64,000 nt of DNA from positions 672,001 through 736,000 of the forward strand of contig CAXXGI010000002.1 in the NCBI GenBank assembly GCA_963674695.2, read 5' to 3'. This DNA comes from a bacterium (GTDB lineage Bacteria; UBA10199; 2-02-FULL-44-16; JAAZCA01). Every line of letters begins with the position of its first letter. The first letter of the stretch is position 1. Position numbers and translations under genes: made by a program. The notes under the pieces were generated by a model. The model saw only the letters and a list, made by a program, of their open reading frames with translations. It was not told where the DNA came from and searched no databases. Positions 33,789 to 36,619 of the stretch are shown here, piece by piece.

Positions 33789-34691
33789 ATGGCAGGTCCA
33801 GTCAAGTGTCCGAACGATATGTGCCCGATCCCGGCGGGGACGTTCAAAATGGGATCGACGAACGGCGATCCGGACGAACAGCCGGTTCGCGAGATCGAGC
33901 TCTCGGCATATAAGATGATGAAGCACCCCGTGACCGTGCGCGAGTACAGGGCCTATCTGGCCGAGAAGGGCGAGGGCGATCGCTTCAAAGCCCTCATCAA
34001 GGGTTGTGGGGCGGATGCCAAGTGGCGGACCGTCGAAAATAAAAAGGGACAAGGGAAGGTGAAGACCCGAAAGGATGCCGCCGGGCTTTTGCGAGGAAAA
34101 ATCGATGGGAAGAAGGTGTGCGAGGCCAAGATCGAAACCATCACCCCCGCCTCCATGCTCAAATTGGACGAGGGGTTCGACGGCGACGATCAGCCGATGG
34201 TCGAGGTGAGTTGGCCTGAGGCCGATGCCTACTGCAAATTCTACGGCATGGAGCTCCCCTCGGAGGCACAGTGGGAACGGGGTGCAAGAGACCTTGCCGG
34301 TGACAAGGAGTATGGGACATCGAGCGGGACGAGGGCGCGTTTGAGCAAGGAGGCGCATGTCAGTGCGAGGGAGACTGCGCCGGTCTGCTCCTATGCGGAA
34401 AACGAAATTGGCCTCTGTGACATGGCCGGCCAGGTGTGGGAATGGACGCGAGATGTGTACCAGGATAGTTATGAGGGGTTGAGTTCAAAAGATCCTTGTA
34501 ACAATCCGCCCCTTCCTGAATCTCAAAAGGATAAGCCCGACAAACGCAATAGGGTCCTCCGCGGCGGTTCCTGGTACTTCCTCAATCCGAGGTTCTTGCG
34601 TGCGGCGTATCGTTACGACTTCCTCCCCGCCGTTGGCTACTGCAATGTTGGGTTTCGGTGTGTGGCGGCCCCGCAGGACTCCAAAAAGTGA
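33789..34691 (+). CDS. DGR target protein, FGE-sulfatase/CLec fold
   Basis: IPAGTFKMGS, HPVTVREY, PMVEVSW.EA..YC, LPSEAQWE, GLCDMAGQVWEW, RVLRGGSW...GFRCV; VR at the 3' end. Confidence 0.95.
   Translation: MAGPVKCPNDMCPIPAGTFKMGSTNGDPDEQPVREIELSAYKMMKHPVTVREYRAYLAEKGEGDRFKALIKGCGADAKWRTVENKKGQGKVKTRKDAAGLLRGKIDGKKVCEAKIETITPASMLKLDEGFDGDDQPMVEVSWPEADAYCKFYGMELPSEAQWERGARDLAGDKEYGTSSGTRARLSKEAHVSARETAPVCSYAENEIGLCDMAGQVWEWTRDVYQDSYEGLSSKDPCNNPPLPESQKDKPDKRNRVLRGGSWYFLNPRFLRAAYRYDFLPAVGYCNVGFRCVAAPQDSKK
34552..34682 (+). repeat. DGR variable repeat (VR) incl. IMH
   Basis: 131-bp ungapped match to TR 36161-36291; 20 mismatches at TR adenines plus one C/G near the 3' end. Confidence 0.97.
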
Positions 34692-34720
34692 TGTAGACTT
34701 TTATTCTTTTGTTTTTTACC

Positions 34721-34755
34721 CTCGCCCCGTCCTTTCGTAGAAAGGACGGGGCGAG
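34721..34755. promoter_or_regulatory. DGR target-recognition hairpin/cruciform
   Basis: Perfect 16-bp stem CTCGCCCCGTCCTTTC, 3-nt GTA loop, just downstream of VR/IMH. Confidence 0.85.
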
Positions 34756-34759
34756 TTTT

Positions 34760-34843
34760 ATGATGACAGCCAACCCTCAAATCATCGCCAGGATGTATGA
34801 TCTACTGCTCTACCTCATTCCGCAGGTCTCCAAATTTCCACGA
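34760..34843 (+). pseudogene. avd: Avd (DGR accessory variability determinant) 5' remnant
   Basis: MMTANPQIIARMYDLLLYLIPQVSKFPR matches the Avd N-terminal YDL..Y..P...KFPR pattern, then runs into REP sequence. Confidence 0.8.
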
Positions 34844-34864
34844 ACTGAACTGGAAGCAGTTTTT

Positions 34865-35275
34865 CCCTCCCCCTTGATGGGGGAGGGTCAGGGTGGGGGT
34901 GGCCTTTGAAGAAACTCGTATCCCTCTCAAGAAACTTGAGGACGAACGCTACGGATACGGAGAAATTCCTATGGCAGCGCCTCAAGGGGAAGCAATTGAC
35001 CGGTTTTAAGTTCCGGAGGCAGGCACCCATCGGAAGGTACGTCGTGGACTTTGTTTGCTTTGAGAAGCGCGTTATCATCGAATGCGACGGCGGCCAGCAC
35101 GCCGATCAAGTCGAAAAAGACCAGCGGCGGGATTCCTGGTTTGCCCAACAGGGATACCGCGTTCTGAGATTCTGGGATAACGACGTTCTCAAAAATGTTG
35201 AGGGAGTTCTGGAGACGATTCTCGACGCCTGTCAGGGTCACCCTCCCTCCGACTCCCTCCCATCAAGGGAGGGAG
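34865..35275. mobile_element. REP-flanked DUF559 cassette inserted in the DGR
   Basis: CCCTCCCCCTTGATGGGGGAGGG..GGGTG and CACCC..CTCCCTCCCATCAAGGGAGGGAG inverted REP-like ends around the nuclease gene. Confidence 0.7.
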
Positions 35276-35286
35276 AAAAGAGTTAG
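34906..35286 (+). CDS. DUF559 / Vsr-like endonuclease
   Basis: [44 protein letters not shown]....GYRVLRFW. Confidence 0.92.
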
Positions 35287-35288
35287 AC

Positions 35289-36148
35289 AGCGCTGCCCCG
35301 TATCGCGACCGTGTGGTCCACCACGCTATACACAACATTCTCGAGCCGATCTTCGATCCGACGTTCATCCACGATTCCTATGCCACACGAAAGGAAAAGG
35401 GAACGCATGCAGCCATCGACCGCTTTCAGGAGTTCGCGCGAAAGAATCGTTACGCGTTGAAATGCGATGTGAAGCAGTATTTCCCGAGTATCCGGCACGA
35501 CATTCTGCTCGACTTGATCAAGCGAAAGGTCGGATGTTGCGCAACGATTCGGCTGATCGAAAAGATCTTGAATTCGCACGACGCCATGGCCAGTTTCTTG
35601 CATCCATCCATCCATCCATCCATCCATCCATCCATCCATCCATCCATCCATCCATCCATCCAGTAGGAATCCCTATTGGAAATCTGACTTCACAGTTCTT
35701 CGCAAATGTCTATCTCAACGGGTTGGATCATTTCGTCAAAGAACAGTTGAAGTGCCGATGTTATCTTCGGTATATGGATGATTTTGTCCTCTTCCACCGG
35801 GACAAACAGTTCTTGTGGACAGCCAGGGGGGCGATTCAGGAATATCTTGAGGGTCTGCATCTCTCCATGCATGAGGGGAAGTGTCGGGTTTTCAAGACGG
35901 CAACGGGCGTCCCTTTTCTCGGTATGGTCGTTTTCCCTCACTGTCGTCGATTGAAGAGGGGGAATGTCATCCGATTTAAGAGGAGGTTGAAGCGTTTTCA
36001 GCAATCGTATGGGAAGGGAACCATCGAATGGTTGCATATCAGGCAATCCATTCGATCTTGGATCGGTCATGCCTCTCATGCCGATACGGCAAGATTGAGA
36101 GAATATTTATTGGAGGATGTGGTCTTCCAGCGAAAGGAGGGTGATTGA
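35289..36148 (+). pseudogene. DGR reverse transcriptase, N-terminally truncated and frameshifted at a (CATC)15 tract
   Basis: Frame [14 protein letters not shown]...[12 protein letters not shown]...[11 protein letters not shown]. Frame [18 protein letters not shown]...RYMDDFV...PFLG...SWIGHA. The SQ motif is DGR-type. Confidence 0.93.
35601..35662. repeat. Tetranucleotide microsatellite (CATC)15CA
   Basis: Counted directly from the sequence. Confidence 0.97.
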
Positions 36149-36160
36149 TCGAAACGGAGT

Positions 36161-36291
36161 GGGTCCTCCGCGGCGGTTCCTGGAACAACAACAATCCGAG
36201 GAACTTGCGTGCGGCGAATCGTAACAACAACCACCCCGCCAATAGCAACAACAATATTGGGTTTCGGTGTGTGGCGGCCCCGCAGCACTCC
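36161..36291 (+). ncRNA. DGR template repeat (TR)
   Basis: AAC/AAT-rich (13 AAY codons in the VR frame) copy of the VR, immediately after the RT stop. Confidence 0.95.
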
Positions 36292-36619
36292 CTGATTCGG
36301 AGTCAAAGGTTTCAAATCGGAGTCCCGGATTTTACGAAATCCGGGGGCGAGTTTGAAGGGAGTCCAGATCGATCGCCCTGGTTTGCTGTGTGATGCGGCG
36401 AACCGAAGATCGCATGGCCCCACCCGGCCCTCGTACCGGTGCATTGCCGTTGACGCGGCGCTTGTCCGCCAACGCCTTGTGGCGGGAGCGGGACGGGTGG
36501 GGATTTTTATTGTGCTTTGGCGACCATTACTCTTTTCATTCCCGTCTTCACGCGTTTTGGCGTCATCGGTGTCTGTGAAGAGCCGCCGGTTCCTGGTTTG
36601 TCATATATGGACTGCCCTC

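Follow-up and report, generated by a model that had tools for sequence, protein, structure and literature searches.

The window (the whole stretch of 64,000 nucleotides analysed) carries what we read, at a probability of roughly 0.8, as a former DGR that is now disabled, from a clade in which a repeat tract inside the RT gene serves as a stochastic, heritable and reversible switch for hypermutation. The element is a chromosomal DGR of the Bordetella phage type, with the order target(VR)-hairpin-avd-RT-TR-structured RNA (Table 1). While it worked, the RT made cDNA from the TR RNA, erring at adenines, and this cDNA took the place of the VR. By such retrohoming the predicted ligand-binding tip of the target, a 300-aa lectin-fold protein, was rewritten at about 13 codons. 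A DUF559 module has replaced about 0.48 kb of avd and the RT 5' end, and the remaining RT stands out of frame at the tract.

Table 1. Features of the disabled DGR and its immediate surroundings (positions within the window).
Feature	Position	Strand	Basis or remarks
IS transposase gene (DDE_Tnp_1_4), directly upstream of target	32059..33474	+	PF13701 E 1.2e-37
Target gene, 300-aa stand-alone FGE-sulfatase/C-type-lectin-fold protein, without N-terminal signal-like extension	33789..34691	+	ORF; PF03781 E 6.1e-52
Variable repeat (VR)	34552..34682	+	Target codons 255-298; gapless match to TR
Post-VR hairpin, 16-bp stem, GTA loop, then TTTT	34721..34755	+	Sequence; relatives keep the position with different sequences
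avd remnant, ~30 N-terminal codons	34760..34852	+	NF033474 positions 2-25 of 104, E 0.043, below cut-off; tblastn and alignment with intact avd
Inserted module	34853..35288	+	Alignment with four related elements and intact cassettes
Left hairpin module	34861-34905		Within inserted module
DUF559 (Vsr-like nuclease family) ORF	34906-35286	+	PF04480 E 5.4e-43
Right hairpin module	35233-35285		Inverted orientation
RT fragment 1, residues 76 to about 176 of intact 350-aa RT	35289..35600	+	RVT_1 profile 16-109; 73-78% identity to relatives
(CATC)15.5 tract	35601..35662	+	TRF, 100% matches
RT fragment 2, with ten-residue motif, YMDD, thumb and stop	35666..36148	+	RVT_1 profile 118-204
Template repeat (TR)	36161..36291	+	13 AAY codons; single copy in genome
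Structured RNA (equivalent to 'Sp' spacer)	36279..36512	+	8 helices, covariation

VR and TR were aligned over 131 bp without gaps. Of 21 mismatches, 20 fell at TR adenines and one paired a TR-C with a VR-G (36286/34677); 20 of the 32 TR adenines are changed in the VR. With a TR of 24% A, the binomial probability of at least 20 of 21 mismatches at A is 9e-12. The A-site mismatches were distributed over codon positions 1, 2 and 3 as 13, 7 and 0, and at the non-A positions the two repeats are identical in 98 of 99 cases. Differences between VR and TR are thus found almost only at TR adenines, and non-A mismatches do not dominate (20/21 at TR-A). An earlier note on this DNA had read past retrohoming from this A-only pattern, and its numbers (the extent of both repeats, the single C/G near the 3' end and the 13 AAY codons of the TR, which lie in the frame of the target) were all recovered on recounting.

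The VR lies at the 3' end of the target ORF. The PF03781 profile spans target residues 10-292 of 300, which predicts a lectin-type fold and bears out the proposal of a stand-alone FGE-sulfatase/lectin-fold protein. The 16-bp GTA-loop hairpin after the VR was likewise located, and the element is chromosomal, as proposed, with no phage genes within about 10 kb.

Beside the TR, a structured RNA resembling Sp is predicted in addition to the hairpin after the VR. One of its helices is a 10-bp stem capped by a UACG loop (36323-36346); its terminal stem (36418-36503) is followed by a U run (36505-36509). The element had previously been closed at 36440; the conserved RNA beyond the TR runs on to the terminator at about 36509. 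Of its 49 pairs, 95.5% were paired versus 40-53% when the structure was slid, and changes on both sides were counted in 32 of 49 pairs versus 7-11 when slid. The observed values were reached by 0 of 500 shuffles. Rfam held no family for this RNA and returned only two sub-threshold chance matches. Avd-binding stem-loops downstream of the TR are described in a preprint (10.1101/2023.10.23.563531), and the UACG-capped 10-bp stem fits the stem-loops described there.

The order target(VR)-hairpin-avd-RT-TR in the earlier note is correct for the parts that it names. The note overlooked the DUF559 gene between avd and RT, the reduction of avd to a stump, and the state of the RT, from which codons 1-75 are missing and which is split by a frameshift in the (CATC)15.5 tract. 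In intact relatives Avd measures 113-117 aa and the RT 346-350 aa. Here about 30 of ~115 avd codons are left, and the inserted module substitutes for about 478 bp, from about codon 30 of avd to RT codon 75. Its ORF matches positions 2-108 of 109 of the PF04480 profile and so covers the full length of this Vsr-like PD-(D/E)XK nuclease family; its match to NF007294 (E 1.3e-33) lies below the equivalog cut-off. No complete translatable RT gene is present: residues 1-75 are absent and the frame changes at the tract. RT fragment 1 is left without a usable start, without the N-terminal extension and without motif 1. RT fragment 2 codes for 160 aa with 62-75% identity to relatives. The RT frame switches inside (CATC)15.5, and one unit more or two units fewer would rejoin both fragments.

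The IGNLTSQ motif and the Avd N-terminus are present at the locus. RT affiliation was assessed with an intact relative of the same clade, 63-68% identical to the fragments of the window. Among solved structures it gave its best match with 8ub7_A (E 1e-52), against E 2.7e-24 for a group II intron RT and 7e-17 for retron-type RTs. The RT is of the DGR clade, closest to bRT; grouping with group II intron or retron RTs was the outcome named before as speaking against a DGR. NCBIfam is without a DGR RT model, and the best match there was a group II model, far below its cut-off. Structure entries 8ub7-8ube belong to the BPP-1 DGR (mtd/VR, avd, TR, Sp RNA, brt).

For the repeat tract, 93 genomes were searched (the class-level and phylum-level sets were identical). 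Among the 14 genomes of the phylum that carry the RT clade, 11 had a tract of at least 16 nt at the identical RT site, as did five metagenome contigs (L052, L168, L169, L177 and L234). The site lies in a loop position just before the codons of the ten-residue motif. Tract units were CATC, CAGC, CAAT, TCAC (CACT), CAGT, CAGA and the 8-mer CATCACTC. Most units are 4 nt long and a few members have units of 5, 7 or 8 nt; none is divisible by 3. Within the window's own genome, the (CATC)15.5 tract is the longest tetranucleotide tract, with 15 units versus 6 and 5 in the only others of at least 4 units.

As a control, 101 RT genes with the same motif were scanned over a stretch that began 600 nt ahead of the motif and ended 520 nt past it. 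The clade tracts were the only repeat tracts before the motif, and after it only an A9 run (L079) and GGCTGC x3 (L118) were found; none of the 101 genes had a (GA)n tract. All tract-bearing RTs fell within one clade (21 rows, support 89/96). A search of the genome contigs with N-terminal peptide patterns of the RT gave 14 loci, mostly distant RTs.

Frame could be scored for 16 tracts, of which 3 were in frame and 13 out of frame (for L168 and L177 from alignments of only 36 and 19 residues). The states were read from consensus assemblies, for the most part short-read MAGs, and such assemblies can get the length of a tract wrong. Because L177/G086 and L234/G085b are not independent lineages, 3 in frame versus 11 out is the fairer count. 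Three of the copies are decayed and contig ends cut two more; the other scored genes were otherwise whole. A protein census covered 53 cluster representatives with 65% or more identity to the RT N-half. The in-frame motif was present in 22, a repeat-coded peptide leading into a shifted frame in another 22, and 9 were other or cut. Among census tracts of at least 2 peptide periods, 3 were in frame against 12 out of frame, with 6 other or cut. Contig ends and the lower limit of 192 aa on protein length both bias the census.

Unit numbers differed between near-identical sequences in three pairs. L177 and G086 share 99.5% identity over 1433 bp and are one CAGC unit apart. P0142 equals the N-half of G015 minus exactly one 8-nt unit. 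L234 and G085b, with 8 and 13 units, are both out of frame; they align over 1802 bp with 21 mismatches. Twenty of these are VR letters at TR-A positions, and the last is the only other substitution in ~1.67 kb. The A-site rewrite of the VR in a lineage assembled out of frame indicates that its RT was functional very recently. Taken with the differences in unit number, it points to a slipped-strand on/off switch for hypermutation. Slipped-strand mispairing at replication would shift the RT into or out of frame; the change would be reversible and might benefit the cell.

The most serious competitor, which we hold to be unlikely, treats the tract as a tolerated, unstable insertion in a surface loop and the out-of-frame copies as ordinary pseudogenes, with no selected switch. 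Decay would give the same excess of out-of-frame alleles as was counted above, several cassettes of the clade are clearly decayed (G000, G003, G054a, G054b and G092, with further deletions in P0029 and P0147), and bRT has no counterpart of the tract-coded peptide (an insertion of 16 residues in the relative G005, by alignment). However, only units divisible by 3 would be harmless, and no such unit length occurs; the site is also fixed while the units differ. Nine out-of-frame copies retain both halves at full length (C-halves in relatives measure 154-165 aa), with YMDD in eight and YQDD in G086. VR/TR pairs of out-of-frame cassettes are, moreover, as clean as those of in-frame ones, with A-site mismatches of 15/17 in G001, 16/17 in G038, 17/19 in G085a, 21/22 in G085b and 16/17 in G063. 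Finally, simple decay agrees poorly with the rewritten VR of L234/G085b and its near-absence of other substitutions.

Programmed ribosomal frameshifting or transcriptional slippage could also yield full-length RT from out-of-frame alleles, so that the tract tuned dosage with no switch at the DNA level; this would suit the majority of alleles, which have lost the frame but are intact in other respects. We regard this explanation as very unlikely: shifts of 1 and of 2 both occur and would need opposite directions, the units differ in sequence and none is known to be a slippery motif, and unit-number differences between near-identical sequences are seen in the DNA itself.

A DGR that is still active, through RT and Avd supplied in trans or through truncated genes that still work, is highly improbable for the window's genome. 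The 98/99 agreement at non-A positions, which would make the last retrohoming recent, and the intact TR and structured RNA would suit such activity. The genome is complete (3 contigs, 100% complete), and the search for RT or avd in trans and for remote VRs that the earlier note had proposed was carried out on it. No second RVT_1 gene was found beyond the two pieces described here, the best tblastn matches to the avd remainder and the RT N-terminus elsewhere had E values of 0.57 and 2.2, and no other TR or VR was present. According to the same preprint (10.1101/2023.10.23.563531), the bRT N-terminal extension and a fingertips arginine (R74) contact the template:primer duplex and the dNTP. By alignment, this arginine falls in the residues 1-75 that are missing here, and the RT remnant, which lacks the extension as well, is also out of frame. 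The VR was identical in contigs from two samples, a weak argument against activity: run contigs (consensus sequences at 3-25x word depth with rare variants dropped) had no other letters in the VR. The statement that the DGR is currently diversifying its target was therefore dropped: avd is cut, the RT is without residues 1-75 and out of frame, and nothing acts in trans. As judged from its sequence, the cassette cannot work in this genome. Because it is broken and the genome holds no other RT, avd, TR or VR, the VR is most likely frozen, as the record of the last retrohoming event. The breakage would be recent, because VR and TR still match at 98 of 99 non-A positions.

That faulty assembly produced the DUF559 insertion and the frameshift is scarcely credible: repeats and mobile elements are often mis-assembled and the run contigs break at the (CATC)15.5 tract, but the VR-avd'-DUF559-RT fragment 1 junctions are spanned, without a differing letter, by Logan contigs from each of three public runs (2 samples, 1 study; no RNA run was listed), one record (X2 record 9) covering 34070-35590, the same kind of module occurs in the same place in G003, and the tract is present in more than 15 independent assemblies.

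Loss of the region from avd to the RT 5' end has occurred independently in several relatives, and two genomes or more show it along with a DUF559 module flanked by hairpins. In G003 the module sits in the same place, its DUF559 gene is 70% identical to that of the window, and the left junctions of the two lie within about 6 nt. A single ancient insertion common to both was considered; gene identity and junction position favour it, and the clean VR/TR pair of the window argues instead for recent loss. Nine further copies of the hairpin module were found in the genome by a short-query search (86-90% identity), eight of them hairpin pairs without an ORF. Searched by title, the DUF559 literature held nothing on mobile hairpin-flanked elements.

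Our preferred reading of a disabled DGR from a switchable clade has a more specific form, which we consider probable. The RT gene of this DGR clade would be a contingency locus, in which a fast-slipping (CANN)n tract in the loop ahead of the ten-residue motif keeps most cells off and rare slippage turns the gene on. A mutable sequence would thereby control a second mutator of far greater power. The clade would also be silenced repeatedly and permanently by loss from avd to the RT 5' end, pointing to recurrent selection, or to a mobile element aimed at this segment, as what locks in a useful VR variant.

Contingency loci with simple sequence repeats (SSR) undergo phase variation by slipped-strand mispairing, for example at tetranucleotide tracts in the lic and mod genes of Haemophilus influenzae. 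Like these, the RT clade has a perfect intragenic tract with a unit not divisible by 3, as in (CATC)15.5. Unit number differs between near-identical sequences of relatives, and genes that are whole in other respects occur both in frame and out of frame; the copy of the window is not otherwise intact. Unlike in H. influenzae, the gated gene is the polymerase of a second, targeted hypermutation system and not a surface antigen or methylase. The hosts are uncultured environmental bacteria and not host-adapted pathogens, and the switch here is a putative one. Literature searched by title and abstract on DGR with repeats and phase variation gave no report of such a repeat switch in a DGR RT; the papers concerned gut phages or Bacteroides, phage resistance, an inversion, a Campylobacter capsule or general essays.

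The BPP-1 DGR is alike in the A-specific flow from TR to VR and in having Avd, and its RT, with IGxLTSQ and YMDD motifs, belongs to the same clade. In both, the TR is immediately followed by a structured RNA that includes a tetraloop-capped stem, the VR is followed by a hairpin, and the VR lies at the C-terminal end of a lectin-fold target. Gene order differs (avd-RT-TR in the window, avd-TR-RT in BPP-1). BPP-1 is phage-borne, whereas the element of the window is chromosomal with a small stand-alone FGE-sulfatase-domain protein as target. In addition, the window has lost avd and the RT 5' end, and its RT clade has the frame-shifting tract. DGRs with broken RTs occur in DGR surveys. As in other disabled or IS-disrupted DGRs, an A-only VR/TR pair has outlasted RT function here; the disruptor differs, being a hairpin-flanked DUF559 module related to hairpin-pair repeats of about 90 bp.

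No natural system other than DGRs is known to direct hypermutation at chosen proteins in bacteria, and little is known of how cells keep DGRs in check. For the genome analysed here, the VR is a fossil and the DGR is not to be counted as active. The recurrent loss from avd to the RT 5' end, together with the DUF559 module, is a lead on how DGRs are retired and on the role of DUF559 elements. If our reading is true, a switch by repeat length within the RT gene would give cells a simple control over DGRs, one that is inherited yet reversible. It would explain the many 'broken' DGR RTs in surveys, perhaps wrongly discarded as pseudogenes, and would predict that only a small subpopulation is diversifying at any time.

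The diversity-generating retroelement (DGR) in the window is real but dead, and in itself of an ordinary kind. The variable repeat (VR) in the target gene and the template repeat (TR) were aligned over 131 bp without gaps, as the earlier note had described, with 21 mismatches. Twenty of these were at TR adenines, of which 20/32 were altered (chance of at least 20 of 21 at A: 9e-12, given 24% A in the TR). The remaining mismatch was a TR-C against a VR-G (36286/34677), 5 bases before the homology end. Translated in the target's frame, the TR contained 13 AAY codons, and the adenine mismatches were all accounted for, with 13 at codon position 1 and 7 at position 2. 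The hairpin reported after the VR was likewise found, and the proposed genome search for remote VRs returned no second copy of VR or TR in 3.03 Mb.

The target protein consisted nearly entirely of one FGE-sulfatase domain, without N-terminal extension. No phage genes were present within ~10 kb of the cassette, and the neighbours coded for two M20 peptidases, a radical-SAM protein, a sigma-54 activator with periplasmic binding domain and a trypsin-like peptidase; it is therefore reasonable to regard the DGR as chromosomal and its target as a host protein, as first read. Two IS transposase genes lay upstream of the DGR, at a distance of at most 10 kb. The window cassette was flanked by the two M20 peptidase genes; the homologue in the related genome G001 occupied another site, between cysS-like and uvrB-like genes. 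A target paralogue outside the window, 57 kb upstream (57% aa identity, in-frame stop), begins with MAGPxKCPN like the target. Its match to the TR did not exceed 25 nt, neither a TR nor an RT was close by, and it probably represents an older copy of the target that has been retired. Separately, a protein of 138 aa encoded downstream of the cassette combines a hydrophobic N-terminal segment with two Tudor-knot/Agenet-like repeats, a domain unusual in a bacterium.

Features of the DGR and of related loci (window coordinates; C1 to C3, contigs of the window's genome)
Feature	Position	Strand	Description
ORF-less hairpin pair	14424-14515	+	
IS transposase	23679-24884	-	Mutator family
IS transposase	32059-33474	+	DDE_Tnp_1_4; directly upstream of target
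Target	33789-34691		300 aa; PF03781 (FGE-sulfatase), E 6e-52, residues 10-292
VR	34552-34682		
Post-VR hairpin	34721-34755		16-bp stem, GTA loop, then TTTT
Inserted segment	34853-35288		436 bp
DUF559 gene	34906-35286		complete; PF04480, E 5e-43
RT fragment 1	35289-35600		RVT_1 profile 16-109
Tract	35601-35662		perfect (CATC)15.5, between RT fragments in different frames
RT fragment 2	35666-36148		RVT_1 profile 118-204
TR	36161-36291		
Structured RNA	36279-36512		last TR bases to U run
Stem	36323-36346		10 bp, UACG or CACG loop
Long terminal stem	36418-36503		then Us
Tudor-knot/Agenet-like protein	38341-38757	+	PF11717, E 2.4e-14
ORF-less hairpin pair	~38805-38897	-	
ORF-less hairpin pairs, rest of genome	C2:427706; C2:508158; C1:827837; C3:379360; C3:624638; C3:697001		
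Single hairpin copy	C1:980890		ninth copy
Target paralogue	C2:648473-649303		
7-nt/8-nt repeat examples	C1:123932-124092; C1:562175-562328; C3:17800-17946; C2:761784-761959		

Intact cassettes of relatives from the same phylum were arranged as target, hairpin, avd (accessory gene, 113-117 aa), reverse transcriptase (RT) gene (346-350 aa) and TR. In the window, the ORF from 34760, 3' of the hairpin, was Avd-like in only about its first 30 residues (NF033474 positions 2-25 of 104, E 0.043). This stump shared 49-69% identity with relatives' Avd N-termini and stopped after KFPR(S/T)(D/E), at ~codon 30. By comparison with relatives, the window RT starts at residue 76 of the intact protein. Relative to G001, ~478 bp were lost, with the segment carrying the DUF559 gene in their place. 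Among solved structures, the RT of an intact relative was closest to 8ub7_A (328 aa, named 'Reverse transcriptase'; E 1e-52), ahead of RTs from group II introns (2.7e-24) and of the retron type (7e-17). In the 8ub7_A alignment, I181, Q187, D215, D216 and R74 carry the numbers given for the RT of the Bordetella phage BPP-1 DGR (bRT) in preprint 10.1101/2023.10.23.563531, and 8ub7 was therefore taken to be bRT. According to that preprint, the template:primer duplex is held by the RT N-terminal extension and one Avd protomer, and the fingertips arginine R74 of bRT touches the incoming nucleotide. The R74-equivalent arginine and the N-terminal extension are both in the RT part lost from the window.

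The genome (3 contigs, 100% complete) contained no further RVT_1 match and no second DUF559, and the lost Avd and RT parts had no match elsewhere in it (best tblastn E 0.57 and 2.2). The earlier note had the DGR diversifying its target, but most of avd and the RT 5' end are missing, the RT frame is split and other copies are absent from the genome; as assembled, the DGR is therefore unable to work. Contigs from three public runs (two samples of one study, possibly including the assembly's source) covered the stretch from VR through avd remnant and DUF559 to RT fragment 1 with zero differing letters, and carried the same VR. A contig from run X1 of the same metagenome had a 37-bp RT match at window 35288, and its upstream sequence codes for ...LIYEPKQRLI, the RT motif lost from the window; the same community therefore includes a related organism whose RT 5' region is uninterrupted.

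The DUF559 ORF was bordered by ~45-bp G/C-rich hairpin modules that are inverted relative to each other. Four other genomes (G003, G013, G007 and G023) contained full elements built in this way (66-72% DNA identity), and the hairpin module was multi-copy in many relatives. Nine further copies were located in the window's genome (86-90% identity to the DUF559-flanking hairpin). Eight of these were ~90-bp pairs without ORF, each of two inverted G/C-rich hairpins (TTCCCTCCCC...GGGGAGGG type) with a short spacer, 86% identical to the DUF559-flanking hairpin; they resemble MITEs derived from the DUF559 element.

The avd-RT region was also lost elsewhere. In G003, of another genus, a homologous DGR carried the DUF559 module with its left junction in avd at most ~6 nt from the window's and its right junction at ~RT residue 323, so that nearly the whole RT was gone. 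In database protein P0027, a hairpin-coded peptide was fused to RT at the same residue as in the window (~75). Plain deletion removed the region in G054a (L046, G054:C49), where it began at ~avd codon 19 and reached the tract's 3' end, and in database protein P0029, an in-frame avd-RT fusion. In P0147, a deletion extended from mid-RT into the TR. The modules of the window and G003 either descend from one old insertion, which fits the similar junctions and a DUF559 divergence (30%) like the cassette's own, or arrived separately at a preferred site, which fits the clean VR/TR pair of the window.

VR and TR of the window agreed at 98/99 non-A positions. Comparable relatives with a whole, in-frame RT had 14/15 (G084) and 16/18 and 19/21 (G011) mismatches at A. 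Clearly decayed relatives were richer in non-A mismatches (6/28 in G003, 6/25 in G054a). The loss in the window would be recent, judged from a VR/TR pair as clean as in whole in-frame relatives and unlike the decayed ones. The G011 locus (L018, G011:C1:14000-27865) was a whole cassette with two targets, each with its own VR, to which the two fractions refer. Two identical copies of it stood in tandem, separated by 5.9 kb, and its RT was in frame and without tract.

A structured RNA following the TR (49 pairs, 8 helices) was common to eleven cassettes. Paired cells amounted to 95.5%, versus 40-53% with partners slid, and changes on both sides were found in 32 pairs versus 7-11 when slid; 0/500 shuffles matched the observed values. 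The RNA agrees with the Sp RNA of preprint 10.1101/2023.10.23.563531 and with the Avd-binding stem-loops, capped by tetraloops, that the preprint places 3' of the TR; it is an ordinary DGR part. Rfam had no family for it. The end at 36440, set for the element in the earlier note, falls inside this RNA and is too early.

The tract that separates the two RT fragments is shared by an RT clade. All 93 genomes of the phylum in the collection were searched; 14 carried this clade, and 11 of the 14 had a tract of at least 16 nt at the same site, 3' of a conserved TTGCA and directly 5' of the RT motif codons. Units were CATC (15.5 in the window's genome, 8.5 in G054b), CAGC (9.5 in G001, 7.75 in G005, 10.5 in G038, 4 in G063, 8.75 in G086 and n in G082, at a contig break), other tetranucleotides ((CAAT)12 in G085a, (TCAC)8 in G085b, (CAGA)4 in G092) or 8-nt units ((CATCACTC)4.6 in G015). 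Tracts were also found in a MAG contig labelled Pirellulales (L052, (CAGC)10.5) and in four metagenome contigs (L168, (CAGT)11; L169, (CAGC)13.5; L177, (CAGC)7.75; L234, (TCAC)13). G011 and G084 had no tract, and that of G070 was degenerate. No unit length among the clade tracts was divisible by 3. Of 16 scorable tracts, 3 joined both RT halves in frame (G005, G092, L169) and 13 did not; frame calls for L168 and L177 were from short alignments, and L177 and L234 belong to the lineages of G086 and G085b, respectively. Downstream RT halves were whole (154-165 aa) except in G054b, with YMDD except in G086 (YQDD) and G054b (YLDD).

As a control, 80 unrelated DGR RT genes were chosen by motif alone; a tract was present at the site in 3, two being G001 and G005. 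A further scan covered 101 RT genes, each from 600 nt upstream of the motif to 520 nt downstream. The only repeats 5' of the motif were the tetranucleotide tracts of the clade; one A9 run and one GGCTGC x3, both 3' of it, were the only others. In an RT C-half tree, every tract-bearing gene was placed in one 21-row clade (support 89/96; resolution within it poor), and no outgroup row had a tract. The tract-coded peptide is a 16-residue insertion relative to bRT, just before GIPIG, which places the tract in a loop able to vary in length. In the window's genome, only 3 tetranucleotide tracts of at least 4 units were present, the RT tract with 15 and the others with 6 and 5. The same genome, almost without tetranucleotide tracts, had unusually many perfect tandem repeats with units of 7 nt (89 tracts of at least 3 copies, the largest (GTTCACC)23) and 8 nt (the largest (GTTCGATA)22).

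For a protein census, the N-half of an intact RT was scored against 5.8 billion proteins, and listed rows with at least 65% identity gave 53 cluster representatives, a sample biased by contig ends and by a minimum protein length of 192 aa. The motif was in frame in 22/53. Another 22/53 ended in a frame-shifted reading of the motif region after repeat-coded peptides (e.g. QSINQSIN), and 9/53 were other or cut, including P0147; by eye, 4 of these were also out of frame and 2 ended inside the tract. Tracts long enough for two peptide periods were in frame in 3, out of frame in 12 and other in 6 cases. Peptide periods of 5 and 7 residues suggest 5-nt (P0136) and 7-nt (P0134) units, and QPTN repeats a CAAC unit.

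Tract length differed between close relatives. L177 and G086 (99.5% identity over 1433 bp, 3 substitutions) were one CAGC unit apart, and P0142 was the G015 N-half ORF minus exactly one 8-nt unit, where in-frame read-through would take two units fewer or one more. L234 and G085b differed by 21 substitutions over 1802 bp, of which 20 were in the VR, all at TR-A positions, and 1 elsewhere; their tracts, of 13 and 8 units, were each out of frame. Thus, a divergence of ~1 substitution per 1.67 kb was enough for the DGR to rewrite the VR and for the tract to change in length, and in the meantime the RT must have been readable. Clean A-only VR/TR pairs were also found in the out-of-frame cassettes of G001 (15/17), G038 (16/17), G085a (17/19), G085b (21/22) and G063 (16/17).

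The best explanation is phase variation, in which slipped-strand mispairing in the tract would gate RT translation. The main rival is an unstable loop that is tolerated but useless, with out-of-frame copies as pseudogenes. It fits the out-of-frame excess and the many decayed cassettes, but does not account for the lack of units of 3 or 6 nt, for the intact RT halves or for the L234/G085b pair. Translational frameshifting that yields RT from out-of-frame alleles is unlikely because shifts in both directions would be required. In the window itself, the RT 5' end is gone, and the tract is therefore now irrelevant to function. At abstract level, no paper linking DGRs with intragenic RT tracts was found; supplements of DGR catalogues may list frameshifted RTs. 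Phase variation of the RT across this clade, with tetranucleotide units at a defined loop, would be a new variant of DGR control, and in the near-identical pair L234/G085b VR rewriting and tract change are seen together.
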